A stretch of DNA of 64,000 nucleotides from an uncultured bacterium (lineage in GTDB: Bacteria; Muiribacteriota; UBA9980), in contig CAYQWL010000003.1 of NCBI GenBank assembly GCA_964421195.1, positions 74-64,073 on the forward strand. Reading direction: 5' to 3'. Position numbers and translations under genes: made by a program. Position 1 is the first letter of the stretch; every line of letters starts with the position of its first letter. The notes beneath the pieces are model-generated. The model worked only from the letters and a program-made list of their open reading frames with translations, searched no databases and was not told where the DNA came from. This document shows positions 4,431 to 47,696 of this stretch, in pieces.

Positions 4431-6410
4431 ATGTGCAGGATCAACGGTTTCTGGGATTTTCATGAAAATTTACGTTACGACGAAAAAAAAGTCAATGAAT
4501 CGATGCGCGATACCATGATTTATGGCGGCCCGGACGATTCGGGAGCGTTTTATGCCGCAAATGCGCCCGGACGCCTTGCGTTCGCACACCGGCGTCTTTC
4601 CATTATCGATCTTTCTTCGTCGGGCCGCCAGCCGATGATGGCGAACGATTATACCATCGTTTTCAACGGGGAAATTTATAATTATGCTGAAATTAAAGCG
4701 GAGCTTTTAAAAAAAGGCCATACCTTTATTTCTTCGAGCGATACGGAGGTGATTCTTAAATCTTTTATTGAATGGGGCCGAAAAGCGGTCGATAAATTCA
4801 GAGGTATGTGGGCTTTTGCTCTATGGGACGCTAAAAATAAAATTTTAACGCTTTCGCGAGACCGCGTGGGAGTTAAACCGCTGTACTGGTATTATAAAGA
4901 CGGTTTATTTATGTTTTCCTCTGAATTAAAGGCTTTTCATGCGCATCCGGCATTCGATAAAAAAATTGATGAAACATCGCTCGCTCTTTACCTTCAGTAC
5001 GGTTATATAACCGCGCCGCGCACTATATTTCAAAATACTCATAAACTCGAACCCGGAAGTTTTTTAACCATAAATTCGATCCGTGATATTTCCATATTTA
5101 AGTACTGGAGCGTCGAAGAACATTTTCTTCGGGGCGCGCAAACTGAAACGGAATTCCTGACATCCGGCGGAGAAAAAATGGACGAAGAAGCGGCGGCCGA
5201 TGAACTGGAAGCGCTTTTGCTTGAAAGTTTTAATTTAAGAATGGTTTCCGACGTACCCGTCGGAATGTTTTTAAGCGGCGGCGTAGATTCTTCTTTATTG
5301 ACGGCGCTTCTATCAAAAAATCGCTCCGGAGGCCGGACCCTTAAAACTTTTACAATCGGTTTTCGTGAAAAAGAATATGACGAGGCGGCGGACGCGAAAA
5401 AAGTGGCTTCGTTTCTCGGAACCACGCATACCGAAGCTTATTGCGGCCCGCGTGAGGCTTTTGACGTTATAGAAAAATTGCCCGGTATATACGACGAGCC
5501 GCTTGGCGATGTTTCAACGGTTCCGACTTATCTCGTTTCGAAACTCGCGCGCGGCGAAGTAAAAGTATCTCTTTCGGCCGACGGCGGCGATGAACTGTTT
5601 TTTGGATACGGCCGTTACACGATGATGCTCGAACGGATATGCCGCTTCGATTCAAATCCTTTTTTATCGCTTGCGGCAGGCGCGCTTAATTATATAAGCC
5701 CCGGCGCCGCTTATTCCATTTATAAAAATATATTATCGCCGTTTTTGCCGCGCTGGAATAATTTTTATGATAAATTCATTAAGCTGAAAAAAGTATTGAA
5801 TACCCGTGATAAAATAACCCAATATGATATTTCAAATAAGTATTTTATGGATGATTCTCTTCGCGATTTCGGCTATGACGCTTCATCCTGCGCGGCCGGG
5901 CAGCTTTTTAAATACGACCGCGCGCTCGATAAATTAAATATCGCCGCGCGTATGTCATGTTTTGATATAAAAACTTATTTACCCGACGATATTCTCGTTA
6001 AAATCGACCGTGCGGCGATGAGCGTGGCGCTTGAAGGACGCGACCCGTTTCTCGATCATAAAATTATAGAATATGCCGCTCGTCTGCCTTTTTGCCTGAA
6101 ATATAAAAACGGCGTTCAAAAATATATACTTAAAAAAATTCTTTACAGGCATGTTCCGCGCGAATTAATAGACAGGCCGAAGCAGGGATTCGGCATGCCG
6201 GTTTATGAATGGTTCCGCGGCGAATTGCAATCCTGTTATAAAGAGCGCCTCGCTTTTGATAAAATTAAACGTGAGGGAGTTTTCGACGCCGCGGCGGTGA
6301 CACGCCTGCTTGACGATTATTTAAACGGCAGGGGCGTCAATGCTCATAAACTCTGGTTTTTATTCGTGTTTGAATTATGGTATGAAAAGTATATGAATTT
6401 TAAAAATTAA
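4431..6410 (+). CDS. asnB: asparagine synthetase (glutamine-hydrolysing) family amidotransferase
   Basis: N-terminal Met-Cys nucleophile (MCRINGF). A class-II GATase domain is followed by the synthetase domain with SGGVDSS (PP-loop). Length is 659 aa. Confidence 0.85.
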   Translation: MCRINGFWDFHENLRYDEKKVNESMRDTMIYGGPDDSGAFYAANAPGRLAFAHRRLSIIDLSSSGRQPMMANDYTIVFNGEIYNYAEIKAELLKKGHTFISSSDTEVILKSFIEWGRKAVDKFRGMWAFALWDAKNKILTLSRDRVGVKPLYWYYKDGLFMFSSELKAFHAHPAFDKKIDETSLALYLQYGYITAPRTIFQNTHKLEPGSFLTINSIRDISIFKYWSVEEHFLRGAQTETEFLTSGGEKMDEEAAADELEALLLESFNLRMVSDVPVGMFLSGGVDSSLLTALLSKNRSGGRTLKTFTIGFREKEYDEAADAKKVASFLGTTHTEAYCGPREAFDVIEKLPGIYDEPLGDVSTVPTYLVSKLARGEVKVSLSADGGDELFFGYGRYTMMLERICRFDSNPFLSLAAGALNYISPGAAYSIYKNILSPFLPRWNNFYDKFIKLKKVLNTRDKITQYDISNKYFMDDSLRDFGYDASSCAAGQLFKYDRALDKLNIAARMSCFDIKTYLPDDILVKIDRAAMSVALEGRDPFLDHKIIEYAARLPFCLKYKNGVQKYILKKILYRHVPRELIDRPKQGFGMPVYEWFRGELQSCYKERLAFDKIKREGVFDAAAVTRLLDDYLNGRGVNAHKLWFLFVFELWYEKYMNFKN

Positions 6411-26352: not shown

Positions 26353-27996
26353 CTATTCAGCAAAAAGATAATGTATTATGAAAATAATAGCAGTTGCGGT
26401 AATGAAACCGAATAAATAAGAAGCGGCCATGCCGGCGATAAAGTAGCCGGCGGCGCTTGCTATTATAGCGCATATCACATTTAAAAATTGCGTTTTAACA
26501 TGGTAAATGGGCGTAATTTTACATGCGGCGGCCGTCATGACACTTTTATCGGAGTAAGGCACTAAATGAGCGCCTGATATCGCGCCGGTAACTACCGCGC
26601 CTGATATCACCGGTATAAGCGTGGTTCCGGCATGCGCCGCGGCCATTTGATAAGCGACGGGCATCATTATAGCCATAGAACTCCAGCTAAAACCTGTCGC
26701 TACCGTAATTAACATGGAAGTAATAAAAATTATAGCCGGCAGAATAGCTTCGGTTACAAAACCGCCCGCCATGCCCGTTATATATTGCCCGGTGCCAAGA
26801 TCGTTCGATATTTTCGCCAGGCCGTTAGAAAGCATTATTATAAGCGCGGCATGAGACATGCCGAATTTTCCGATTAAAAATATTTTAAAATAAGATTTTC
26901 CGGCCAGCACGCCGTCTTTTTTCATAAGATAAACGCAAAGGATAGTGGCTGCTATGGCGGAAAAAAGAAGCACTTCTATCGTAGGAGATTTCGATAATAT
27001 GTTAATTAGAGTGGCGGGTTCATTTCCATCACGTCTTAACAAAAAATATCCGCTTATAAAAAGTCCGCCAAATGCAATGGCGATAAGAGAGAGTATCGGA
27101 ACTAAAAAATGGTGCGTTCTGACGCATTTATCCATGCCGTCTTTATCATTACTACGCTCCGTTTCGGTTATAAATTCATCATTATGTAATGAACCGGTAA
27201 CTGCATTTATTTCATTAATCACATTTATCGTATTTGTTTTTTTTGCTTTTATTTCGATCAGGTTTTTTGCTTGATATTCAGGGCTTTTTTCTTTTTTTGC
27301 GTCTATTATTGTTTTAGTTTCCGCATCAGGGCGTTCAAAGCGAGTTCCGAGCCATTTGCCGCTGTATGCCGTTAAAAACGTAAAAATTATTCCAAGATAA
27401 GTATAAAAATGATATGGCAGCGAGGCAATAAGCAGTTCCATAGAACTTTTTTTCAGGCCAAATTTAAGCGAAGCTTCAAGCATGAGCGATCCTTCGTATG
27501 CGGCCCAGGTTGAGATTATAGCTACTGACGCTATTTCCGAAACGATATCCACTATATAACCCGCCTGCGCGATAGATACACGGTTAATAAAATTTATTTT
27601 TCTCATGGAAGAACCGGCGATAAGCACGTTGGCATAATCATCGAAGAAAATGAAAATTCCAATTAACCAGGTAGCCAGACGCGATTTCACGGCCGTGTCT
27701 AATTTGCGAGAAAGCGTGTCGGCAAGCATATAGTACGCGCCCGATGCCGACATTATTTCAAGCAGCCCGCCTATAAGCATCACGAATATAGATATTTCTA
27801 TACGTTCAGCGTCCGCGAAGGTAGCTTCGATGTAATGAAAAGTTTTTTCGAATATTATAGCCGCGTTTGCGCCGGATATTACAATAACGCCCGAAAATAT
27901 TCCAAGCGCGAGCGCGGCAATTACATTATGCGTTGCGACCGATACGATAATAGTAACTATCGCAGGCATTAATGAATGGAATGAATAATCCTGCAT
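26353..27996 (-). CDS. NhaC-family antiporter (Na+/H+ antiporter NhaC-like); candidate substrate/product antiporter for the adjacent decarboxylase
   Basis: 547 aa with about 12 TM segments in two halves around a hydrophilic central loop, which matches NhaC topology. Its start overlaps the decarboxylase stop by 1 nt. Confidence 0.7.
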   Translation of the reverse strand: MQDYSFHSLMPAIVTIIVSVATHNVIAALALGIFSGVIVISGANAAIIFEKTFHYIEATFADAERIEISIFVMLIGGLLEIMSASGAYYMLADTLSRKLDTAVKSRLATWLIGIFIFFDDYANVLIAGSSMRKINFINRVSIAQAGYIVDIVSEIASVAIISTWAAYEGSLMLEASLKFGLKKSSMELLIASLPYHFYTYLGIIFTFLTAYSGKWLGTRFERPDAETKTIIDAKKEKSPEYQAKNLIEIKAKKTNTINVINEINAVTGSLHNDEFITETERSNDKDGMDKCVRTHHFLVPILSLIAIAFGGLFISGYFLLRRDGNEPATLINILSKSPTIEVLLFSAIAATILCVYLMKKDGVLAGKSYFKIFLIGKFGMSHAALIIMLSNGLAKISNDLGTGQYITGMAGGFVTEAILPAIIFITSMLITVATGFSWSSMAIMMPVAYQMAAAHAGTTLIPVISGAVVTGAISGAHLVPYSDKSVMTAAACKITPIYHVKTQFLNVICAIIASAAGYFIAGMAASYLFGFITATAIIFIIHYLFAE

Positions 27997-29933
27997 TAGA
28001 ACAAAACATCCTTTATGTTAATTCCACGCCGTGTAAGTTCGTCTTCTTCGTCTTTTTTCATAACGCTTATTTCGCCGTTATTTAATCCATGAATTTCAAC
28101 GCCGTAATCTCTGTAAAAATCAAGTATTTCAATGATTTCGGCGGTAATAAGCTGGCCTGGAACTAAAAGCGGGATGCCCGGCGGATAAGGCACTATCATG
28201 GCGGTTGATACACGATTTACTGAATCTTTGAGCATAATTTTTTCTCCGGTGCAATAAAAGAACGCATAGCGCGGTCTAAAGCACATAGGTGAAAGCGTGA
28301 GCCTGAAATCGTCGAGAATTTTACCTTTAGATCGCGGACTGCCGTTACCGCTGTTTTTTTCGATGTTTTCAAGCGCAAAGTAAAGCCTGTTTATTTTAGA
28401 TTGCGTTGCGCCTATGGTGATTAAAATGGATATAGTGTTAAATGTGGTTTTTTCAATTTGTATGTTATATTTATTAGACAGGATATGTTCAATTTCGCGC
28501 GCGGTCATTCCCGTTTGCGAAACATCTATTGTTAATTTTGTTTTATCGAGACGAACACGATCGTTTTTTATTTCATCTGAAATAAGATCTTTTAATTCGA
28601 GCACCCTGAATTTTTTTAATGAGTTAACGGCCTTTGTAAGTGAATCTGACATTTCGAGCGCATGTGAAAGCAGCGTATATCCTTCAAGCGCCATTTGCTT
28701 GCGCGCGGCGTCAAGCGAGGCGATCATTGGATATTGCGGCGAAGTGGATGTGTGCATATTTAAATTTTCCATAAAAAAATCTTCGATTTGCTCGAAATCA
28801 GGATCATTAACGTGAATCATTGACGCCTGGCTGAATGCGCTCATGGTTTTATGCGTCGATTGCGTGGCGTAATCGGCGCCGGCGGCCATAGCGCAGGGAT
28901 AAAATTCATGATGAAAACGCGCGTACCCGAACCATGCCTCGTCAACTATAACTTTAATGCGGCGTTTATGAGCTTCTTTTACGATATCGGCGATATCATA
29001 AATAAGACCGTCATAAGTGCAGTTGGTAAGAAGGAGCACTTTTACTTTTTTTCCGGCGGCGATGGCCCTGTCCATAGTTTCGATAATCCGTTTTTTAGGA
29101 ACGGGGCCAAATATTCCATATTTGTTATTTACGGAAGGCATTAAATAAACAGGCTCGGCGCCGCTGATTATAATGCCGTAATGTACCGATTTATGACAAT
29201 TCCGGTCTAAGATAACGGATTCGCCTGGTTTGATAAGCGTTTGCAGCAATATTTTATTTGACGTAGAAGTGCCGTTGGTCGAAAAAAAAGTGCGCCGGGC
29301 GCTGAACGCCCTTGCCGCGAGTTCCTGCGCTTCTTTAATCACGCCTTTAGGATTGAGCAATGAGTCGAGCATTGGCACCGATACCGAAATATCGGATGTA
29401 AAAAGGTTCTGGCCGAAGAAATTAAAGTAATCGTTCATCCAGGGCGAGTTTTTAACCGAATATCCCGATGCATGGCCTGGCGTGTGCCATGCGTCGCTTG
29501 CTTTTTTAGAATATTCGACGAGTTTTTCGAAAAACGGCGCCCGAAATTTAGAGTTAATAAATTCAGATTTTACCTTAACGGCTATGTCGTCAAAATCCCG
29601 ATCGCCTTTATAAAAATAACCGTTAAGATTTTCACCGTTAAGCACTTTTTGCGCGTTTCGTTCGGCGGTATATAAAAATATGTTAATATCGTAACGAATT
29701 TTTAAAAATTCGTTTATCATTTCACGGCCGCTGATTTTTCGAGCTTTTCTTTGCTCGGTAATTAATTCCCATTCGGTAAGAAGGGTATGTATATTGCCGT
29801 CATTTTTAAGATATTCAAACGCTTCGTCGAAATTCGAAGCGGTGACTATTTTCAAACCGCGCGTCGTCAATTCCTTTTCTTCTTCTAATAGATCGCTTAA
29901 ATTCGGGTTTATTAGTAAAACTTTATATTGCAT
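27996..29933 (-). CDS. fold-I Orn/Lys/Arg decarboxylase (LdcI/AdiA/SpeF-type, with N-terminal wing domain)
   Basis: N-terminal receiver-like wing domain, an HTPGH motif, and the PLP-Lys motif STHKTMSAFSQASMIHV, which closely matches the LdcI/CadA SxHK...SQxSxIH signature. 645 aa. Confidence 0.85.
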   Translation of the reverse strand: MQYKVLLINPNLSDLLEEEKELTTRGLKIVTASNFDEAFEYLKNDGNIHTLLTEWELITEQRKARKISGREMINEFLKIRYDINIFLYTAERNAQKVLNGENLNGYFYKGDRDFDDIAVKVKSEFINSKFRAPFFEKLVEYSKKASDAWHTPGHASGYSVKNSPWMNDYFNFFGQNLFTSDISVSVPMLDSLLNPKGVIKEAQELAARAFSARRTFFSTNGTSTSNKILLQTLIKPGESVILDRNCHKSVHYGIIISGAEPVYLMPSVNNKYGIFGPVPKKRIIETMDRAIAAGKKVKVLLLTNCTYDGLIYDIADIVKEAHKRRIKVIVDEAWFGYARFHHEFYPCAMAAGADYATQSTHKTMSAFSQASMIHVNDPDFEQIEDFFMENLNMHTSTSPQYPMIASLDAARKQMALEGYTLLSHALEMSDSLTKAVNSLKKFRVLELKDLISDEIKNDRVRLDKTKLTIDVSQTGMTAREIEHILSNKYNIQIEKTTFNTISILITIGATQSKINRLYFALENIEKNSGNGSPRSKGKILDDFRLTLSPMCFRPRYAFFYCTGEKIMLKDSVNRVSTAMIVPYPPGIPLLVPGQLITAEIIEILDFYRDYGVEIHGLNNGEISVMKKDEEDELTRRGINIKDVLF

Positions 29934-30086
29934 TTTTTCCTCGCAAGACTTTATTTATGTTATTATACATCGCCATTATTTGTGAAAAATAAAATAAGCA
30001 GCGCGGCGGCCTGCGCCCGCTACTTACGAATATCGTTTACTTAAAAAAATTAATCTGGTAAAATTAAATAACTATTTATGGTTCAA

Positions 30087-30111
30087 ACGGCCCGGCGGCC
30101 GTCATATTTTT
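30087..30111 (+). terminator. orphan GC-rich hairpin + T-tract (terminator-like) in the decarboxylase upstream region
   Basis: ACGGCC-CGGC-GGCCGT forms a perfect 6-bp GC stem with a 4-nt loop (30087-30102), followed by CATATTTTT. No + strand ORF lies upstream. Confidence 0.25.
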
Positions 30112-30491
30112 AAATAAAAAACTTTTAAAAACGATTTTTAAAGTATAAAAATACATATTGATATTGATTGTTTAACCGTTTTTATTTTATATAATAAAAA
30201 TCGTCATAAAAATCATTAGTAATTTAAAAAGTATTATATAATAATTTTAATTAAATATCAATAGCGTTTAATAAATATTATAAAATTCCAGGAAACAAAA
30301 AGCCGTTTTATTATTTATAACACTAATTTTTCTTAAATTCTTGAGTATAGTTAATTTTAATTATTTTTATTTATAATTATTTGAGTTTTTTTCAAACAAT
30401 TATAATTTTAAAATGGTATAACCTTAAAACCGATTATCATGGAAATAAATTTAAATGGAGATAAATCGAGGTAAATGGAGGTAAATTTAAA

Positions 30492-31496
30492 ATGAAAAAA
30501 ATATTTATTTTGTCAGTAGCTTTTGCGCTTTTATCATACGTTTCGATTTGTTTTGCGGGTGATGCGAATACCGCGGCGGCAAAATCAAGTGTTTCAACCA
30601 CTTATAATACCGATATAATGGGCAATCAGATAATCCACCACGATATTAATCATACCCCGGAAGAAAGTTATAAAGAAGGAATTTCCAGAGGCCGGTATAA
30701 ACAATACTGCAATTATTCAGAGCTTTTTTCAAATCTTACTATAAATGATGGACTTATTGATGAAATGATCGCTTATCCTGAAACTTCTATGGCAAAAAAA
30801 ATTAATGCTGCCGGTAATATACAAAACAAATCATCATCGAATAATAAAATGATTTTTGTTGAAAACGATCATCATTACGATGAAAAATCCTTGAATAAAG
30901 GAATTAAAGATGGCATGGCTGAATATGAACACGAACTTCTTCACGATACTGAAAATGGATCGCTTTTAACAATTGAACAGCATTTTAATATGGGGTTAAC
31001 TTATATTAATTCAAAAAATTTCGAAAACGCCCTGTTGCATTTTAATGTTATAGTAAAAAACGGCGGCGAATCCAATCCGTATTATTATAAAGCTATCTGG
31101 TATAACGCATATTCAAACATGAATATAAAATATAATGAACGTATTGCTCTTAAAGTATTAATAACATATTTTAATCATTTTGATAAAGAAATAAAAGCTG
31201 ATTCGATTTTTTATGCAGGTAAGCTTTTAGTAGATATTTCCTGGAATAATGAAAACATGTCGAAAAAATATTATGAAAAAGCTGTGTTATTGCTTTCCTC
31301 ATGGACAAATAAATATGAAAAAAATAAAAATTATCTTGAAGCGTTATTAAAATTAGCTACGGCGCAAGAAAAAATTAAAGAATACGGGGCGGCGTATAAT
31401 ACTTATAAAAAAATTGTACGTTTGTTCCCCAATTCTACGATTGCAAAAGAGGCTGAAAAAAGAATGGAATATCTTGCAGTTTACTTTCCATACTAA
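30492..31496 (+). CDS. secreted TPR-like repeat protein (signal peptide)
   Basis: N-terminal signal peptide (KKIFILSVAFALLSYVSICFAG). The C-terminal half has helical repeats with TPR-like spacing. No catalytic motif was recognised. Confidence 0.45.
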   Translation: MKKIFILSVAFALLSYVSICFAGDANTAAAKSSVSTTYNTDIMGNQIIHHDINHTPEESYKEGISRGRYKQYCNYSELFSNLTINDGLIDEMIAYPETSMAKKINAAGNIQNKSSSNNKMIFVENDHHYDEKSLNKGIKDGMAEYEHELLHDTENGSLLTIEQHFNMGLTYINSKNFENALLHFNVIVKNGGESNPYYYKAIWYNAYSNMNIKYNERIALKVLITYFNHFDKEIKADSIFYAGKLLVDISWNNENMSKKYYEKAVLLLSSWTNKYEKNKNYLEALLKLATAQEKIKEYGAAYNTYKKIVRLFPNSTIAKEAEKRMEYLAVYFPY

Positions 31497-31534
31497 ATAT
31501 AATGCCTCATGTATAAAACCCGAAAATTTACCTC

Positions 31535-31939
31535 TCAAACAGTCCGTTTTAAAAAAGGTATTTTTTTTAGTTCGTCAACGGCCGAATCAAAATCATTGTT
31601 AGCTTTAACGATTTTACGAAGCAGTTTAACAGCGGCCGGCGTTTTATTCATCCACCAGACGATGTCAGATACATCCATATCGTTTTTATCATCTTCTTTA
31701 ATTAATCGAGCATCAAGCCCGCCTTCAAGAAACCAATCGATATCAACGCCAAATTTTCTCTTAAGTGAAATCAAAAGATCGCAACCCGGAGCTTTTTTTC
31801 CCGCTTCAATTTCACAGATAAAACTAACCGAAGTTTCAAGTGCATCAGCAAAACGTTGCTGCGTTAATTTTCTCGTTAATCTGATTTCTTTTAACCGCTC
31901 CCCCAGCCCGATAAGTTCTTCTTTAGATAAACGGCTCAA
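31535..31939 (-). CDS. XRE-family helix-turn-helix transcriptional regulator
   Basis: LKEIRLTRKLTQQRFADALETSVSFICEIEAGKKAP is a canonical Cro/C1-type HTH. Confidence 0.7.
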   Translation of the reverse strand: MSRLSKEELIGLGERLKEIRLTRKLTQQRFADALETSVSFICEIEAGKKAPGCDLLISLKRKFGVDIDWFLEGGLDARLIKEDDKNDMDVSDIVWWMNKTPAAVKLLRKIVKANNDFDSAVDELKKIPFLKRTV

Positions 31940-31967
31940 ATTATTTCCTCATTTTTTAAAATTTTTC

Positions 31968-31996
31968 TTGACATTTTTCTCTTAAGCGAGTAGAAT
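31968..31996 (+). promoter_or_regulatory. candidate sigma70-type promoter (TTGACA - 17 nt - TAGAAT) reading toward the chemotaxis operon
   Basis: TTGACA at 31968-31973 and TAGAAT at 31991-31996, immediately beyond the start of the divergent XRE regulator gene. Confidence 0.35.
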
Positions 31997-32494: not shown

Positions 32495-32941
32495 ATGAAT
32501 AATATTATAAATAACGAAAAAAGAAAATTAATATCTGAAAACATCAATACCGGCAATAAACTTTTAAATGATATAGAATCTTCGGAAATCGCCGGCGAAG
32601 AAAACTACATTTCATACAATAAAACAACCCCTGAAGTTTTAAATGCTATTTTTAGAATTTTTTATGCCGTCAAAGGTACGGCTTTTTTTATCGATTCACA
32701 AACGATTACCAATATAACCTATGAAACCAAAATTCTTCTCGCTATTTTTAAAAAAGAAAAAATCGTTCTTTGCTCCGAACATTTATCCCTTCTTTATCGA
32801 ACGAGCGATTTCATTAAAAACATTCTTAACATCATAGAAAAACAACTCATTAAAAAAACAACTCTTGTTTGTGATCACGCCGCTAAAATAAATAACGACA
32901 TACTTCATTTTTGTACTGAACCGTCCAAAAATGAACCATAA
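32495..32941 (+). CDS. stand-alone degenerate Hpt (CheA P1-like) domain protein; phospho-acceptor His replaced by Tyr
   Basis: 148 aa paralog of CheA residues 1-130 in this window. It has EVLNAIFRIFYAVKGTAFF where CheA has EILNTIFRLFHTLKGTASF, giving Tyr57 (codon 32663-32665, TAT) at the CheA His57 position. Confidence 0.6.
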   Translation: MNNIINNEKRKLISENINTGNKLLNDIESSEIAGEENYISYNKTTPEVLNAIFRIFYAVKGTAFFIDSQTITNITYETKILLAIFKKEKIVLCSEHLSLLYRTSDFIKNILNIIEKQLIKKTTLVCDHAAKINNDILHFCTEPSKNEP

Positions 32942-33069: not shown

Positions 33070-33597
33070 ATGGCCATTGTTAAAAACAGGAGGCTGATTA
33101 AATTGAATATTTTGATAATCGATGATGATCCCGGCTGTCTCGACAGTTTGAGCAGTTCACTACAACTTTATTCACACAACTGCGAAGCGCATACCAACGC
33201 GCTAAACGCTCTTAAAATATACAAAGAAAATCATTCAAAGTACGATCTCGTTATTACCGACATGAAAATGCCTGCCATAAGCGGGATTGAAGTTTTAAAA
33301 AGGGCGCTTGAAATAAACCGCAACGCAAAAGTAATTATTATCACGGCTTACGGTGACGTAGAAACGGCTATTTCCGCCGTCAACAATCACGCTTATGCAT
33401 TTTTTGGAAAACCGATTAATTTTCAAGAATTACTCGAAACAATCGAAAAAATCGAAAATGAAAACTCGATCAAAAAATTACCGGAAGAAGAACTGAAAAA
33501 AATAATCGACGAATACGCTAAATTGAAAAAAGCCTATGAAGAACTTCGGTCGTTGTTAAGTAAAAAAAATAACGACGGGGAGGGCAATAAGAAATGA
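33070..33597 (+). CDS. single-domain response regulator (CheY-like receiver) with C-terminal coiled coil
   Basis: The REC residues are intact: IIDDDP, VITDMKMP (phospho-Asp), IITAYG (Thr) and FFGKP (Lys). A 45 aa charged C-terminal helix follows. The stop overlaps the cheA ATG (ATGA). Confidence 0.8.
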   Translation: MAIVKNRRLIKLNILIIDDDPGCLDSLSSSLQLYSHNCEAHTNALNALKIYKENHSKYDLVITDMKMPAISGIEVLKRALEINRNAKVIIITAYGDVETAISAVNNHAYAFFGKPINFQELLETIEKIENENSIKKLPEEELKKIIDEYAKLKKAYEELRSLLSKKNNDGEGNKK

Positions 33598-35891
33598 GTA
33601 GTATAATAAATGACGAAAAAATGGAATTCATTGCTGAATTTGTAAATTCAAGCCGTGAACTTCTCGACGATGTAGAACCGCAAATAATCGCTTTAGAAAA
33701 AAGTTCCAATGCATACGGCGAGGTAGATCCGGAAATTTTAAACACTATTTTCAGATTATTTCACACATTAAAAGGCACCGCTTCTTTCGTCGATTTACAA
33801 ACTATAACAAGCGTAACTCACGAAGCTGAAACACTTCTCGACATCTTCAGAAAAGAAAAAATCAGCCTTCGCACCGAGCATATCGATCTGCTCTGCCGCA
33901 CAAATGATTTCATCCGTAACATTCTCGATACGGTCGAGCGCCAGCTCGACGATAAAGGATTCGAAAGCATTGCCACGCAAATCGTAGGAGATTTAAAAAG
34001 CACCATAGCCGCAGTTTCTTCCGAAAACACGCCTCAAAATTTATCTCCAAATAATTTCAGCGGCGCATCTACATTAAAAGCTTCCAACGCGGACGGCGAA
34101 ACTTTTCAAAACGCGCCAGACGGCGATAAAACAGCCGAAGAATTCGAGGAAGAGCTTAAATTAATTATTTCACCAGAAATGAAAACGCGCTTTACTCAAG
34201 AAACCGGGGAATTATGTGAAGAAGCCGAAATGATGCTTCTTGCTTTTGAAAGAGTGCCCGACAATCTTGAACTTGCCGCCAACGCATTCAGAGCTCTTCA
34301 CAGTATTAAAGGAAACGCAGGATTTTTTGGCTTCGTAGAACTTGAAAAAATCAGTCATGCCACTGAAAATATACTTGACTCTCTCAGAAACGCATCACGC
34401 AAACCCGACAAAAACTTAATGTCCGTAATATTAACAGCCATAGATTATTTAAGAAATGGCGCAAAAAAAATCAACGAAGGGCTTCGTATAAATGAATCCG
34501 AAACTACCAATTTATTATCATCTCTTGAATCTCTTAACCCTTCAAATCCGGACAACGGCAAATCAAATACCGAAACTATCGCAACGCAGGACGGCATAAA
34601 TAATATCGGAAATACCGGAAACGATTTAAAAATCGAAAAAACGGAAACTGCGCCAAATGAAGAAACCGCGCGCGACGCTTCAAAAAATTCCGTCCCGGCT
34701 TCATCAGTACCACAAACATCGCAATATATTCGTATCGACACCGATAAACTCGATTCTCTTCTCGATCTCGTGGGCGAAATGGTAATCGCCGAATCGATGG
34801 TAGCTAACTGTCCGGAATTAAAAGGATTTCAGCTTGAAAAATTTGAAAAGGCAATACACCATTTAAATAAAATCACCCGTGATATTCAGGAAACCGCTCT
34901 TGCCATGAGAATGATACCATTATCATCTACTTTCCATAAAATGGAAAGGCTCGTACGCGACCTATCGAATAAATTCAATAAAAAAATTAAACTCGAAATC
35001 GCAGGTGAAGAAACCGAAGTAGATAAAACTATAATCGAACAAATATCCGATCCTCTTGTTCATATAATCCGCAATTCCATCGACCACGGACTCGAATCAA
35101 ACGAAGAACGCATAAAATCGGGCAAACCCGCCGCGGGAACCATAAAAATCGAAGCCCGCCACTCCGCCGGAGAAGTCTGGATTATTATCGAAGATGACGG
35201 ACGCGGACTCGACCGGGATAAAATAATTAAAAAAGCGATAGAAAATTCACTTATTAAAAGCGACGGTTCAGATCTTAAAGACGAAGAAATATGGAAACTA
35301 ATATTCGAACCGGGCTTTTCAACCGCCGAAAAAGTATCGAATATTTCGGGACGCGGCGTCGGAATGGACGTAGTAAAACGAAATATAGAAAAACTTCGCG
35401 GCAGAGTAGATATCAGAACTCAAAAAAACGCCGGAACCATTATAATTTTAAGAATACCGCTCACGCTGGCTATAATCGACGGAATGGAAATAGCCGTAGG
35501 CAAAGCGCGTTATATAATTCCCATAAATTCGATAAGACAATCATTTAAAACAGTCCAAAATAAAATATCGCATACACCCGATGGTAATGAAATAGTCAAT
35601 GTACGCGGCGAACTGCTTCCCGTAATCAGACTTCATAAAATGTATGATATAGTTCCGCTTTACACTAAACTCGAAGACGGACTTTTAATAATAGTCGAAA
35701 ACAACGAACAAAAATGCTGCCTTTTCGTCGATGAATTAATCGGACAACAGCAGATAGTAATTAAAGGGCTTTCTAACTATCTTGGAAGAGTGCGGGGCGT
35801 TTCCGGCTGCGCTATAATGGGCGACGGCGAAATAAGCCTGATCCTCGATATAGGCGATCTTATAAGCAGCATCGAAACGGCGGCAATATAA
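33594..35891 (+). CDS. cheA: chemotaxis histidine kinase CheA with two N-terminal Hpt domains
   Basis: Hpt-1 carries FRLFHTLKG. Hpt-2 carries FRALHSIKGNAGFFGF, close to the E. coli P1 motif. A Ser/Asn/Thr-rich linker follows, then P3 (IRIDTDKLDSLLDLVGEMVI), an HATPase_c domain (IRNSIDHGLE...GRGVGMDVV) and a CheW-like P5 domain. Confidence 0.9.
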   Translation: MSSIINDEKMEFIAEFVNSSRELLDDVEPQIIALEKSSNAYGEVDPEILNTIFRLFHTLKGTASFVDLQTITSVTHEAETLLDIFRKEKISLRTEHIDLLCRTNDFIRNILDTVERQLDDKGFESIATQIVGDLKSTIAAVSSENTPQNLSPNNFSGASTLKASNADGETFQNAPDGDKTAEEFEEELKLIISPEMKTRFTQETGELCEEAEMMLLAFERVPDNLELAANAFRALHSIKGNAGFFGFVELEKISHATENILDSLRNASRKPDKNLMSVILTAIDYLRNGAKKINEGLRINESETTNLLSSLESLNPSNPDNGKSNTETIATQDGINNIGNTGNDLKIEKTETAPNEETARDASKNSVPASSVPQTSQYIRIDTDKLDSLLDLVGEMVIAESMVANCPELKGFQLEKFEKAIHHLNKITRDIQETALAMRMIPLSSTFHKMERLVRDLSNKFNKKIKLEIAGEETEVDKTIIEQISDPLVHIIRNSIDHGLESNEERIKSGKPAAGTIKIEARHSAGEVWIIIEDDGRGLDRDKIIKKAIENSLIKSDGSDLKDEEIWKLIFEPGFSTAEKVSNISGRGVGMDVVKRNIEKLRGRVDIRTQKNAGTIIILRIPLTLAIIDGMEIAVGKARYIIPINSIRQSFKTVQNKISHTPDGNEIVNVRGELLPVIRLHKMYDIVPLYTKLEDGLLIIVENNEQKCCLFVDELIGQQQIVIKGLSNYLGRVRGVSGCAIMGDGEISLILDIGDLISSIETAAI

Positions 35892-45803: not shown

Positions 45804-47696
45804 TTAAAAATTAGCGGCCGATGAAGTTCCGAGCGCCGCCGCTCCTATAGCGCCCATAAACTGCGCGTCGGGCGGAACTATTATTTTTTTAAAACCTGAG
45901 TTAGATTTTAGTATTTCTAAAAAAGCTTTATTATGGCTTATACCCGATGTTACTACGAGAATTCCCGACTGCGAACGATGCGCTTCAAGAAGAGGAGCGA
46001 TACGGGCATAAACGGTATAATTAACGCCCGCCATTATTTTTTTAATATCCACTCCGGCTATTAATTTAGCGATCAGTTCAGTCTCTCCAAATGTCGCACA
46101 GGTTATAGAAAGCGGTTCAGGATCAAGATAATGTTTTGATATTTCACCAAGATCCGCCTTTAAAATTCGAGCCATATTTTCTATATACCTTCCTGAACCG
46201 GCGGCGCACTTATCGTTCATTGAAAAACCTTCAACGGCGCCTCCGCTCACTTCCATTACCTTAATATCCTGTCCGCCGACGTCAAGAAGCGTAAAGTTTT
46301 TAAGGCCTGATGCGTAAACCGCGCCAGCCGCATGACATTCTATTTCGGAAAAAGGCATTGCATCGAAAATTGAAGCCCTATAACGGCCGTATCCGGTAGA
46401 AAAATATTCCATTTTATTAATATTTTCAATATTTTTTTCACCCGATGTCTCAAAAAGATTCAAAATATCCGAATTAAATCTTTCGAAAGCGTTATGTTTA
46501 TTTTCTACGCTTAAATATTTAATTATAAAATCCATAGTTTCATAAATTTCTAAAAATTTGCGGCCGTTTACGAAACAGGCTATTTTAACCGAACGAGATC
46601 CAAGATCTATTCCGGCGGCGCAACGAATACGATTCATTAAATCGATCTTTTTCGATTTCCGTCTATATTTTTTCTTTTCAACGTTTAAAATAAAGCTTTC
46701 AATTTTAAGCCGGTCATTTTCATTAAGCGGCGCCGGACGATCACCTTCGATCGTAAGCACGGGAAAATCGCCAAGCTCGTTTTTTAAAATTCCATCTTCT
46801 ATTTGATGAAAACAAAAACTTTGAACATAATGTATCAAACAATCGAGCCGTCTTTCGTCAACGGCTTTTTTTATATCTTTCAGACGGTTGCTAAAAGAAT
46901 AAGGATATGTATAATTACGGTACGTTTCGCAAAGATCGAGTCCTATACAGTCTATCAACGAAAACTGCTTTTGAGTTTCGTTATAAATAATTTCTGAACC
47001 GAACGAAGAAATATAATCATAATAATCGCTGAAAACCGGAGGTATTCCGACATGGCCGATGCGCAGTGAAACGCTTTTAGACGGCCGCGCTTCGACTTGT
47101 TTTAAAAACGATTTCATGTCTTCATAAAATACAGCCGGATTACGATTAAAATCAGAAGCCGAAATTAAATTGAGATGGTTTTCAAATCCGCTCACCTTAA
47201 GTTCTTTATAAGTAAGTTCATCCATACGCTTTAATATTAAGCGGCAGCGATCAAATTCCGATTTGATTTTTTCGCATGAATCAATATCGGCGCCATAATA
47301 ATTTATAAACCGCATAATTTCATTTTCAAGCCTTTTACGGTCGCCGTTCAAAGGATACTCGAACGAAAATATTTTAATATTATGATAAGCTAATATATCT
47401 GAAATTGGAATGGTGTGAGCGCAATCGCCTTCGGTAACGATTACCGCGTTTTTTAATTTTAAAAACACGGCCGCCGCCATTACGCCGCGCGTCCAGCAGC
47501 ATACCGCGCGAGGCGCAAGCCCCGAAGAAAGTTTTAACAGCTCATCCGGCGAGCGGGACGCTATAAAAATATTATTTAAATCGACCGGGATCAGGCCGGC
47601 CGAATAAATAACTTCGATTGGTACAGTAGAACTTATACCTACAAGCTTTTCAATATCGTTTTTTAATTCGGAATAATTCGAAAGGATATCTATCAT
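45804..47696 (-). CDS. fusion protein: 2-hydroxyacyl-CoA dehydratase D/beta-component-like domain + BadF/BadG/BcrA/BcrD (HgdC-like) ATPase activator
   Basis: The N-terminal ~360 aa has Cys motifs (CCWTRG, GDCAH) as in HgdB-like dehydratase components. The C-terminal ~270 aa has the actin-fold start AAGIDLGSRSVKIA and the cluster-bridging NDKCAAGSGRY motif of dehydratase activators. Confidence 0.65.
   Translation of the reverse strand: MIDILSNYSELKNDIEKLVGISSTVPIEVIYSAGLIPVDLNNIFIASRSPDELLKLSSGLAPRAVCCWTRGVMAAAVFLKLKNAVIVTEGDCAHTIPISDILAYHNIKIFSFEYPLNGDRKRLENEIMRFINYYGADIDSCEKIKSEFDRCRLILKRMDELTYKELKVSGFENHLNLISASDFNRNPAVFYEDMKSFLKQVEARPSKSVSLRIGHVGIPPVFSDYYDYISSFGSEIIYNETQKQFSLIDCIGLDLCETYRNYTYPYSFSNRLKDIKKAVDERRLDCLIHYVQSFCFHQIEDGILKNELGDFPVLTIEGDRPAPLNENDRLKIESFILNVEKKKYRRKSKKIDLMNRIRCAAGIDLGSRSVKIACFVNGRKFLEIYETMDFIIKYLSVENKHNAFERFNSDILNLFETSGEKNIENINKMEYFSTGYGRYRASIFDAMPFSEIECHAAGAVYASGLKNFTLLDVGGQDIKVMEVSGGAVEGFSMNDKCAAGSGRYIENMARILKADLGEISKHYLDPEPLSITCATFGETELIAKLIAGVDIKKIMAGVNYTVYARIAPLLEAHRSQSGILVVTSGISHNKAFLEILKSNSGFKKIIVPPDAQFMGAIGAAALGTSSAANF

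Follow-up and report, generated by a model that had tools for sequence, protein, structure and literature searches.

A mid-size Orn/Lys/Arg-type decarboxylase encoded with an NhaC-family transporter in a gene pair conserved across phyla

SpeF-PotE, CadA-CadB and AdiA-AdiC each combine a winged decarboxylase of the OKR_DC_1 superfamily with a polytopic transporter encoded by a co-transcribed gene, and they work by exchange of precursor for product. We describe a gene pair of the same make-up in the window, the whole 64,000-nucleotide stretch of DNA analysed here. Its carrier is unrelated to the APC superfamily, which supplies the antiporters of the inducible E. coli systems, and belongs instead to the NhaC family of the ion-transporter superfamily.

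The NhaC family includes MleN (YqkI) of B. subtilis (TC 2.A.35.1.2), which is not a plain Na+/H+ antiporter but a substrate/product exchanger of malate-2H+ against Na+-lactate (PMC7419537). MleN differs from the window transporter in its anionic substrates and unrelated enzyme partner, and a structural alignment puts the two at ~13% identity. The mleN gene adjoins that of a decarboxylating malic enzyme. Other family members carry amino acids, basic ones included: SAUSA300_0846 serves S. aureus as its chief histidine transporter (PMC10817146), LysW is a predicted lysine transporter under riboswitch control (PMC5584792), and T-box-controlled tyrosine carriers have been predicted. These carriers differ from the window transporter in being uptake systems that stand alone, regulated by amino-acid sensing and unlinked to decarboxylases. 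A further precedent is the tdcA-tyrP-nhaC-2 operon of E. faecalis, where an NhaC-family gene is co-transcribed with a tyrosine decarboxylase gene. That enzyme is a group II decarboxylase, however, and the operon also encodes the APC exchanger TyrP beside an nhaC-2 of undefined role, whereas the NhaC-type protein is the sole transporter of the window cassette.

The original prediction presented the NhaC-type partner as an uncharacterised variant of decarboxylation-antiport. This holds for the pair itself, since no description of an OKR decarboxylase with an NhaC-type partner was found in the searchable literature. MleN, the amino-acid carriers and the enterococcal nhaC gene all precede it, though, and the idea is therefore less unprecedented than proposed.

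On the enzyme side, the nearest relative, by solved structure as well as by characterised sequence, is Rv2531c of M. tuberculosis (PDB 9N0O), a ‘cloaked’ glutamate decarboxylase that matches the window enzyme with 303 bits and 44.7% identity over the core. In both proteins the catalytic and C-terminal domains come after a receiver-like domain. Rv2531c, at 947 aa, additionally has a four-helix bundle at its N terminus and large insertions inside the chain, whereas the window enzyme lacks such a bundle and begins directly with the receiver-like domain. No transporter partner is described in the literature found on Rv2531c. The ‘ancestral’ short arginine decarboxylases of the Bacillus SpeA type (~490 aa) have an equally compact core (33% core identity) but lack the N-terminal receiver-like domain, and in one Bacillus locus no transporter was linked to speA.

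The two-gene locus and its transporter

The pair and its surroundings comprise the following features.

27996..29933, minus strand: decarboxylase gene, 645 aa, a fold-type-I PLP enzyme of the OKR_DC_1 superfamily
26353..27996, minus strand: transporter gene, 547 aa, NhaC family (PF03553), ion-transporter superfamily
27994..27998, minus strand: TAATG stop/start overlap of the two genes
27133..27321, minus strand: ~52-aa Lys/Asn/Glu-rich insertion in the central loop of the transporter, from alignment, pLDDT and composition
29934..30491: divergent intergenic region of 558 bp
29985..30027, minus strand: GC-rich, terminator-like hairpin and following U-tract, ~50 nt upstream of the start codon within the 5′ leader
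30233..30261, minus strand: best sigma-70-like promoter match, TTGATA-17-TATAAT (11/12), a consensus match only
30492-31496, plus strand: gene for a TPR protein, the divergent neighbour of the operon

Both minus-strand reading frames, of 645 and 547 aa, were correctly placed in the original prediction, as was their overlap of 1 nt: in the junction ttcTAATGcag, the TAA stop of the decarboxylase gene (27996-27998) and the ATG of the transporter gene (27994-27996) have one nucleotide in common. The sequence AAGGA lies ~13-17 nt upstream of this ATG. The speF and potE genes of E. coli also overlap, by a few bases. The best explanation of the arrangement is a self-contained operon with the decarboxylase first and the transporter second.

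The AT-rich DNA upstream had been taken as typical of an inducible acid or polyamine module, a reading that we do not retain. The region, which falls to 15% GC at 30100-30399 in a genome of 39% GC, is an ordinary divergent intergenic region between the decarboxylase and TPR-protein genes; it has no match to an Rfam family or riboswitch, and its promoter-like sites are not enriched over shuffled sequence. No regulator of the CadC, AdiY or SpeFL type was conserved beside the pair in the loci examined. The leader hairpin is conserved in three related contigs in which the remaining upstream DNA has diverged, and comparison of these contigs revealed no compensatory double changes within it. We consider it a putative structure and a candidate attenuator.

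As predicted, the partner of the decarboxylase belongs to the NhaC and not the APC family: Pfam places a Na_H_antiporter domain (PF03553) in it with an E value of 7e-23 (81.7 bits, cutoff 23), and no APC family matched. Two narrower assignments were rejected, the NhaC Na+/H+ antiporter equivalog (TIGR00931; 24 bits, cutoff 370) and the Tet(35) tetracycline efflux protein (NF000013; 97 bits, cutoff 750), which matches the C-terminal half alone. The AlphaFold model of the transporter is all-helical with two repeats; among PDB entries it comes closest to 9a59, an integrative model of MleN from B. subtilis, and next to TRAP, DASS and AbgT transporters. Some 40 positions set the paired transporter subfamily apart from unpaired relatives, and among them there is no evident acquisition of acidic residues of the sort that would suggest a diamine. 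The central-loop insertion was absent from all homologues aligned, even those at 70% identity; it is encoded by DNA of low GC and skewed composition and lies inside a low-confidence stretch of the model (residues ~226-288, pLDDT 33-58).

The decarboxylase subfamily and its substrate pocket

Three features of the enzyme are used below.

29553..29933, minus strand: receiver-like ‘wing’, residues 1-127, from AlphaFold topology, with the OKR_DC_1_N score under cutoff
28848..28850, minus strand: K362 codon (motif QSTHK), the lysine predicted from alignment to form the PLP Schiff base
28452..28454, minus strand: codon of the pocket residue E494 (IQIEKT), from alignments and PMC13506015

Pfam detects the OKR_DC_1 domain (PF01276) at an E value of 1e-102 (344.5 bits, cutoff 27) and OKR_DC_1_C (PF03711) at 2e-8 (35.2 bits, cutoff 24.2), the latter match spanning only positions 62-111 of the 132 in the model. 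For the wing domain that had been proposed, structure prediction and Pfam differ: residues 1-127 adopt a confident (beta-alpha)5 topology in the AlphaFold model (pLDDT ~80-91), whereas OKR_DC_1_N (PF03709) scores 20-24 bits, under its curated cutoff of 29.3. The model also aligned over its full length with the winged structures of LdcI, AdiA and Rv2531c in Foldseek. Within the wing, E54 (LTEWELP) occupies what we take to be the position of the CheY phospho-acceptor Asp, the acidic pair after strand 1 is absent, and T89 and K109 are invariant across the clade to which the enzyme belongs (clade A, below).

Both catalytic motifs named in the original prediction are present, WHTPGHASG at residues 149-157 and QSTHKTMSAFSQASMIHV at residues 358-375. 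K362 aligned with the PLP-lysine of E. coli CadA, LdcC, AdiA, SpeC and SpeF, with that of Bacillus SpeA and with K570 of Rv2531c, and the H-K pair H247 and K248 (DRNCHKS) aligned with all reference enzymes, corresponding to H405 and K406 of Rv2531c. The window enzyme and the Lys/Orn enzymes have in common the PLP-lysine motif, this H-K pair and the E-K pocket residues. The AlphaFold monomer is poor near the active site, with pLDDT <50 at residues 129-192 and 396-422. Homologues in other phyla are 63-93% identical.

The enzyme had been noted as shorter than LdcI and AdiA, and the alignment accounts for this: eight insertion runs, amounting to 82 alignment columns and present in at least four of five E. 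coli enzymes, are missing from it; Bacillus SpeA and the members of clades A and B lack them too. Compared with short forms, extended LAOdc groups have been described (Li et al. 2021, PMC8503589) as carrying at least eight conserved core insertions. In a neighbour-joining tree of a 306-column catalytic segment (200 bootstraps), clade A and its betaproteobacterial sister, clade B, split from six reference enzymes at 100% bootstrap. Identity to clade B was 54-56% over the full core and 61-63% over the 306-column segment, and identity to E. coli enzymes of the CadA/AdiA/SpeF type was 28-35% over the core. Scores against NCBIfam models were all far under their cutoffs (LdcC, for example, 277 against 968). 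As judged from sequence and predicted fold, the window decarboxylase is a member of a mid-size clade, clade A, that combines a receiver-like wing with a compact core free of E. coli-type insertions, a subfamily previously uncharacterised. On a more speculative view, to which we give only limited credence, such an enzyme might represent the intermediate, so far missing, in which winged decarboxylases had gained the receiver domain but not yet the insertions.

It had been suggested that the substrate could be read from placement among the LdcI/AdiA/SpeF/SpeC clades. The enzyme lies outside the LdcI/LdcC, AdiA and SpeC/SpeF clades and outside that of LdcA as well, and phylogenetic placement therefore cannot give the substrate. 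Nor can ‘Orn/Lys/Arg’ be assumed from family membership, because Rv2531c, the nearest relative with a solved structure, decarboxylates glutamate and showed no activity on Lys, Orn and Arg. The authors of that work argue that activities have gone unrecognised in many members of the family (PMC13506015). The OKR_DC_1 superfamily is now known to cover more functions than its name suggests.

This best PDB match raises the question of a non-basic substrate, either glutamate decarboxylated to GABA as by Rv2531c or some other compound, with the transporter handling the corresponding pair. We consider this very unlikely, as the residues proposed to recognise glutamate in Rv2531c, R576, R718 and N731 (PMC13506015), align in the window enzyme with S368, a gap and E494, and clade A is invariant at these positions. 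The four-helix domain is absent too, and the PGH motif is kept, as in the E. coli enzymes and P. aeruginosa LdcA, against LPVARG in Rv2531c. The position of E494 is E in CadA, LdcC, SpeC, SpeF, LdcA, H. alvei LdcI and Bacillus SpeA, T in AdiA and N731 in Rv2531c, and so sets basic-amino-acid enzymes apart from the glutamate decarboxylase. The ‘Orn/Lys/Arg’ label of the original prediction thus finds support in the pocket residues, if not in family membership alone, and we infer that the enzyme acts on a basic amino acid. E494 does not tell Orn, Lys and Arg apart, as the arginine decarboxylase SpeA of Bacillus has E as well; ornithine is slightly favoured, with arginine and lysine also possible.

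Conservation of the pair

Linkage is unprovable from a single window, and the pairing might in principle be a fortuitous adjacency or an annotation artefact. A survey of genome context for decarboxylase-NhaC pairs, as first proposed, refuted this explanation, to which we attach practically no probability. The pair is kept in more than 20 loci from many phyla, including MAGs of Wallbacteria, Riflebacteria, Bacteroidales, Marinimicrobia, Aminicenantes, Holophaga and Myxococcales. In each of 19 distinct loci the decarboxylase gene preceded the transporter gene on one strand; the gaps between them ranged from -1 to 84 nt, apart from one of 273 nt. The flanking genes are entirely different among Wallbacteria, Myxococcales, Aminicenantes, Bacteroidota-like and other MAGs, so that the pair behaves as a cassette. 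In addition, the pairwise identities of the two proteins are correlated (r = 0.854, Mantel p <= 0.0005). This correlated divergence, together with conservation across phyla, excludes chance adjacency.

In a decarboxylase-seeded scan with one genome per species, the transporter gene lay directly downstream in 12 of the 18 clade-A loci with readable downstream DNA; a third of these genes therefore have no adjacent transporter, and the enzyme can be retained without the linkage. One exception has the transporter ~36 kb from the decarboxylase on the same contig. In a transporter-seeded metagenome scan, the decarboxylase was found at both loci (2/2) with at least 33% identity and readable upstream DNA, and at none of 76 loci of 25-31% identity. 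In all cases examined, transporters of at least 33% identity had the decarboxylase adjacent or, once, on the same contig. Because the pairing is conserved, specific and co-evolving, the decarboxylase and the NhaC-type transporter are very likely functionally linked.

This co-evolution also bears on whether the transporter might be a genuine antiporter of Na+(K+) and H+ that serves ion and pH balance only, the amino acid and amine crossing the membrane by other carriers. Its Pfam family is indeed named for Na+/H+ antiport, its FFDDYAN motif also occurs in unpaired homologues, and a role in ion/pH balance has been assumed for enterococcal nhaC-2. The transporter nevertheless falls far short of the NhaC equivalog cutoff, and such tight co-evolution with one enzyme is unexpected of a housekeeping ion antiporter. 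Moreover, the tdc operon has an APC exchanger in addition, whereas no other transporter was conserved beside the window-type pair in the loci examined. We regard an antiporter of this kind as improbable.

Proposed function

On balance, we favour a model in which an Orn/Lys/Arg-type decarboxylase works with a cognate NhaC-type substrate/product transporter, a pair that would resemble SpeF-PotE in function. The cytoplasmic PLP-dependent enzyme would decarboxylate a basic amino acid, which the transporter would import while exporting the resulting amine, most simply as an exchange of precursor for product. With every turnover a cytoplasmic proton would be consumed and the exported product would bear more positive charge, so that the cell interior would become more alkaline, a membrane potential would build up, or both.

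The characterised amino-acid carriers of the NhaC family are importers and not exchangers, which counts against the exchange step. The histidine carrier SAUSA300_0846, LysW and the T-box tyrosine carriers are, by the same token, points in favour of a biosynthetic module, in which a cation-coupled importer would feed Orn, Arg or Lys to a decarboxylase making putrescine, agmatine or cadaverine for the cell’s own polyamine pool; the amine would stay inside and bring no energy or pH benefit. Anaerobes that rely on their neighbours’ ornithine were described by Li et al., and an acid-response regulator was linked to the pair in no locus examined. Sister clade B looks biosynthetic, given that its genes lie beside arginine-biosynthesis genes (argD downstream in 38/59 loci, argF in 42/59 and argG in 35/59). 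The same gene context is among the points for the favoured model as well. If the transporter were a general importer for a proteinogenic amino acid, however, it should also turn up without the decarboxylase, and the transporters of at least 33% identity do not. Genes for agmatinase, carboxyspermidine enzymes or other downstream polyamine steps were also linked to the pair in no locus examined. A biosynthetic module thus seems unlikely to us, although it deserves to be kept in view.

Beyond the SpeF-PotE-like model that we favour, the pair could represent a new decarboxylation-driven device for energy or ion homeostasis, or a pair with a substrate outside Lys, Orn and Arg, a more speculative proposal to which we give only limited credence. 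As such a device, the NhaC-type carrier would swap a basic amino acid for its amine and move Na+ and H+ as well, in the manner of MleN. If this were true, decarboxylation would be converted into both sodium-motive and proton-motive force in strictly anaerobic, uncultivated phyla.

The decarboxylase-transporter pair, its conservation and its upstream region

The decarboxylase and transporter genes form an isolated unit on the minus strand. Both lie at the coordinates of the original prediction and meet, as it had also stated, in a 1-nt overlap at which one base is common to the stop and start codons (junction ttcTAATGcag).

27996..29933, minus strand: decarboxylase ORF, 645 aa, OKR_DC_1 family
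26353..27996, minus strand: transporter ORF, 547 aa, PF03553

One flank of the pair holds a polysaccharide/methyltransferase cluster and a ferritin gene, and the other holds a TPR gene and a chemotaxis cluster encoding a receiver protein, CheA, two MCPs, CheW, CheR and CheB. No polyamine-pathway genes were found near the pair in the annotated span of the window (~19.5-49 kb) or in related loci. A mobile-element origin was rejected, as neither gene has a close homologue on PLSDB plasmids (best 28% and 35% identity).

Three further features of the neighbourhood were recorded. The chemotaxis cluster opens, 650 bp upstream of the CheA gene (33594-35891, plus strand), with a stand-alone 148-aa protein (32495-32941, plus strand) that shares 51% identity with the Hpt domain at the N terminus of CheA; carrying Tyr (FYAVKG) at the site of CheA’s presumed phospho-His (FHTLKG), it is apparently a degenerate Hpt paralogue. 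A gene at 45804-47696 (minus strand) fuses a 2-hydroxyglutaryl-CoA dehydratase D-component-like domain to a BcrAD/BadFG activator ATPase domain, a strict-anaerobe type that fits the inferred lifestyle. Lastly, a 158-aa ORF (31509-31985, plus strand) is wholly antisense to a Pfam-supported XRE-type HTH gene (31535-31939, minus strand) and is probably a mechanical ORF.

We scanned one genome per GTDB species with an alignment of 20 decarboxylase homologues (alignment A1), and then searched the returned loci for the window transporter. Two groups were recovered. Clade A, which includes the window enzyme, spans Ozemobacteraceae, Rifleibacterium, Bacteroidales, Salinivirgaceae, Holophaga, Neomarinimicrobiota and Mcinerneyibacteriota, in MAGs only, at 58-70% identity. 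Its sister, clade B, is betaproteobacterial (45-53% identity by tblastn) and includes cultured Chromobacterium, Vogesella and Chitinimonas. The transporter gene lies directly downstream of the decarboxylase in 12 of the 18 clade A loci with readable downstream DNA, and it is absent from every clade B locus. In annotated look-ups the pair also turned up in Wallbacteria, in one MAG each of Myxococcales and Aminicenantes, on a contig with a Hyphomicrobiales label and in several further genomes, with wholly different flanking genes at each of these loci. In all 19 distinct loci compared, the decarboxylase precedes the transporter, the intergenic gap runs from -1 to 84 nt apart from one of 273, and the pairwise identities of the two proteins are correlated (r = 0.854, Mantel p ≤ 0.0005; median identity of the enzyme 65%, of the transporter 41%). 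This constant order, together with the short gaps and correlated identities, reveals a conserved, co-inherited cassette that defines a transporter subfamily, and the pairing proposed from this one genome is thus a conserved one.

A reciprocal scan of metagenome contigs was seeded with the transporter (alignment A2) and followed by a decarboxylase search. The four transporter matches at 33% identity or more either had a decarboxylase immediately upstream (loci L091 and L092) or started at a contig edge, and none of the 76 matches at 25-31% identity was accompanied by a decarboxylase. The homologue lists of the two proteins also have about two dozen ‘longest contig’ values in common. Linkage of the two genes is nevertheless non-obligatory, since one third of clade A genes stand alone. 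On contig CALOFP010000002.1 of GCA_942492635.1, the decarboxylase (L006) and a transporter homologue (P0058, at L170) lie on the same strand ~36 kb apart, showing that the genes co-occur without linkage in this genome. Two near-identical metagenome contigs differ in that the decarboxylase is split into two ORFs (174 and 477 aa) in L172 (6035-7961) and is a single ORF of 641 aa in L173 (6036-7961); the split reflects a frameshift, which may be genuine or may come from misassembly.

The DNA upstream of the decarboxylase holds the following features.

Upstream of the decarboxylase: divergent intergenic spacer, 558 bp, GC down to 15%
30233-30261, minus strand: best promoter-like site, upstream of the hairpin
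29985-30027, minus strand: terminator-like GC-rich hairpin with U-tract in the 5′ leader, between the promoter-like site and the ribosome-binding site

The AT-richness of this region had been taken as a sign of acid or polyamine control, a reading that was not borne out: its low GC is unremarkable beside the other intergenic stretches of this genome, at 25-27% GC. A riboswitch or other known RNA was rejected, as an Rfam gathering scan of the window gave no family match and matches in 29800-30600 under permissive settings were no better than chance. No recurrent regulator was found among the loci examined, and the XRE-type protein encoded at 31535-31939 was rejected as a conserved regulator, as a generic HTH is all that it has in common with the XRE-type protein encoded upstream in the Aminicenantes locus. 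The hairpin is kept in L001 (~6010-6050), L179 (~335-375) and L180 (~650-690) amid diverged upstream DNA. Its resemblance to a leader terminator suggests attenuation by a candidate terminator, a lead rather than a finding because the comparison covers four close sequences with no compensatory base changes in the hairpin.

Lineage and wing domain of the decarboxylase

The original assignment of the enzyme as a fold-I Orn/Lys/Arg-type decarboxylase with HTPGH and PLP-lysine motifs was upheld by its matches to PF01276 (E 1e-102) and PF03711 (E 2e-8) and by the motifs WHTPGHASG and QSTHKTMSAFSQASMIHV. In alignments, K362 of the enzyme coincides with the Schiff-base lysine of CadA, LdcC, AdiA, SpeC, SpeF and Bacillus SpeA. 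The nearest solved proteins by sequence are Rv2531c of M. tuberculosis (303 bits) and P. aeruginosa LdcA (264 bits), followed by LdcI and AdiA, with the ornithine decarboxylases last. In a neighbour-joining tree of 306 core columns (200 bootstraps), clade A (99%) and clade B (100%) form one group at 100%, split at 100% from LdcI/LdcC, AdiA, LdcA and SpeC/SpeF, with Rv2531c between. Judged from its sequence, the enzyme belongs by descent to the OKR_DC_1 superfamily, yet to none of its characterised groups, and its clade is missing from existing classifications. Phylogenetic placement, which had been put forward as a route to the substrate, therefore yielded none.

For the N-terminal wing (residues 1-127), AlphaFold confidently predicts a (beta-alpha)5 domain, and the Pfam score of 24 bits falls under the threshold of 29.3. 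The wing keeps T89 and K109. At what we take to be the CheY phospho-acceptor Asp site, clade A carries Glu (LTEWELP; E54, codon 29772-29774, minus strand), and the CheY-type acidic pair that we would expect after strand 1 is missing. Clade B, whose wing matches PF00072 weakly, has D-E after strand 1 and D at the presumed phospho-acceptor site. The clade A wing may thus be a phosphomimetic pseudo-receiver, and that of clade B is possibly a phosphorylatable receiver.

Eight runs of at least three residues (82 columns in total), each shared by four or all five of the E. coli proteins, are missing from the window enzyme and throughout clades A and B. The 490-aa short form SpeA of Bacillus velezensis (PLSDB record) is likewise empty at all eight, and the two clades (L005-L084) make up a family of mid-size decarboxylases of 640-660 aa (652-659 aa in eight clade B loci checked) with a core as compact as that of Bacillus SpeA. 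All receiver-bearing forms have been described as sharing at least eight insertions that total at least 67 residues, and the same authors ask whether the wing or the insertions arose first (Li et al. 2021, PMC8503589). A receiver-like wing joined to an insertion-free core contradicts the rule that all winged forms carry them and bears directly on that question.

The substrate of the decarboxylase

The closest solved relative of the window enzyme, Rv2531c (PDB 9N0O), is a glutamate decarboxylase that is inactive on Lys, Orn and Arg, with a proposed side-chain pocket of R576, R718 and N731 (PMC13506015). Since this 2026 result, the whole superfamily has been suspected to hide new activities. In HMMER alignments (native numbering being that of 9N0O plus 14, as checked with K570), the window enzyme has S368 in place of R576, a gap at R718 and E494 in place of N731. 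Both S368 and E494 are invariant within clade A. Ser occupies the R576-equivalent site in all five E. coli enzymes, and the E494-equivalent site is Glu in CadA, LdcC, SpeC, SpeF, LdcA, H. alvei LdcI and Bacillus SpeA, and Thr in AdiA. The window enzyme also keeps the PGH motif, whereas Rv2531c has LPVARG at that place. Because the pocket residues are unlike those of Rv2531c and PGH is kept, we infer that the substrate side chain is cationic. A non-basic substrate comes third in weight among the rival explanations of the module, and the pocket residues argue against glutamate in particular.

As aligned, the pocket residues cannot separate Orn, Lys and Arg. We had considered E-K at E494 as a mark of ‘Lys/Orn, not Arg’, AdiA having T-R, and rejected it, as the arginine decarboxylase Bacillus SpeA also has Glu; read from these alignments, the position separates only basic-type enzymes from the Rv2531c glutamate enzyme. 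Active-site modelling was dropped because the AlphaFold monomer model is too poor there. The genomic context of clade B, which is 54-56% identical to the window enzyme over the full core and 61-63% over the 306-column catalytic segment, offers a hint. Downstream of its decarboxylase, argD, argF and argG follow on the same strand in 38, 42 and 35 of 59 loci (L026-L084), many of the loci without them being truncated contigs, and these genes tie the nearest relatives to the ornithine/arginine node. As a rough split, ornithine would be the leading, still tentative, candidate, with arginine possible, lysine slightly less so and any other substrate unlikely. The cluster is present in cultured species (for example L067, Chromobacterium haemolyticum, and L054, Vogesella alkaliphila; L033 is Pelomicrobium), making a genetic test of the substrate possible.

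The transporter and the role of the cassette

The NhaC-family assignment of the transporter held (PF03553, E 7e-23), and both the NhaC equivalog (24 bits against 370) and Tet(35) (97 bits against 750) were rejected. No sequence relatives of it were found in the PDB. Among the structures compared with its AlphaFold model (pLDDT 83.8), an integrative model of B. subtilis MleN ranks first, and TRAP, DASS/INDY and AbgT transporters follow; we take the fold to be that of elevator-type carriers of the ion-transporter superfamily. About 40 alignment positions distinguish paired from unpaired transporters, and no clear gain of acidic residues was seen among them. The window transporter also has a ~52-aa Lys/Asn/Glu-rich insertion in a central loop (27133-27321, minus strand), predicted by AlphaFold to be disordered and missing in all homologues, even at 70% identity.

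The NhaC family includes an exchanger, MleN, which moves malate-2H+ against Na+-lactate (PMC7419537), and amino-acid carriers, among them a S. aureus histidine transporter (PMC10817146), LysW, for which lysine transport is predicted (PMC5584792), and predicted T-box tyrosine carriers; the enterococcal tdc operon also holds an NhaC-family gene. By analogy with these members, an amino acid or amine is a plausible substrate of the window transporter. Because a compact operon holds a strictly associated, co-evolving transporter, the simplest account would be that it moves the substrate and/or product of the enzyme, and with precursor/product exchange the module would operate on the same principle as SpeF-PotE, CadA-CadB and AdiA-AdiC. 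Heaviest among the rivals is an import-only, biosynthetic module; strict association with the decarboxylase speaks against a general importer. Second in weight is a true Na+/H+ antiporter in a supporting role, and the same association argues against a housekeeping ion antiporter. Transport of the enzyme’s substrate and/or product would place the APC-based decarboxylase/antiporter pairs as the functionally closest systems.

Such amino-acid decarboxylase/antiporter pairs are the textbook model of bacterial acid resistance and of proton-motive force by secondary transport, and to our knowledge every characterised decarboxylase system for basic amino acids uses an APC exchanger. Full-text literature searches for linkage of a decarboxylase to nhaC found only the tdc type. 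The concept itself is already known, and NhaC-family amino-acid transport has precedent; here the logic of a decarboxylase with its cognate carrier is realised with an enzyme from an uncharacterised clade and a transporter from a non-homologous family. The cassette is widespread and the case for it is well supported bioinformatically. The conservation in many candidate phyla of a cassette whose carrier is unrelated would amount to non-orthologous replacement, and it would offer an initial clue to the function of a large NhaC subfamily. Pipelines currently annotate the transporter subfamily as ‘Na+/H+ antiporter’, ‘tetracycline efflux pump’ or ‘NhaC family protein’ and the decarboxylase as ‘aminotransferase class I/II-fold enzyme’, names that conceal what is probably a capacity for amine production in anaerobes of sediment, groundwater and gut.
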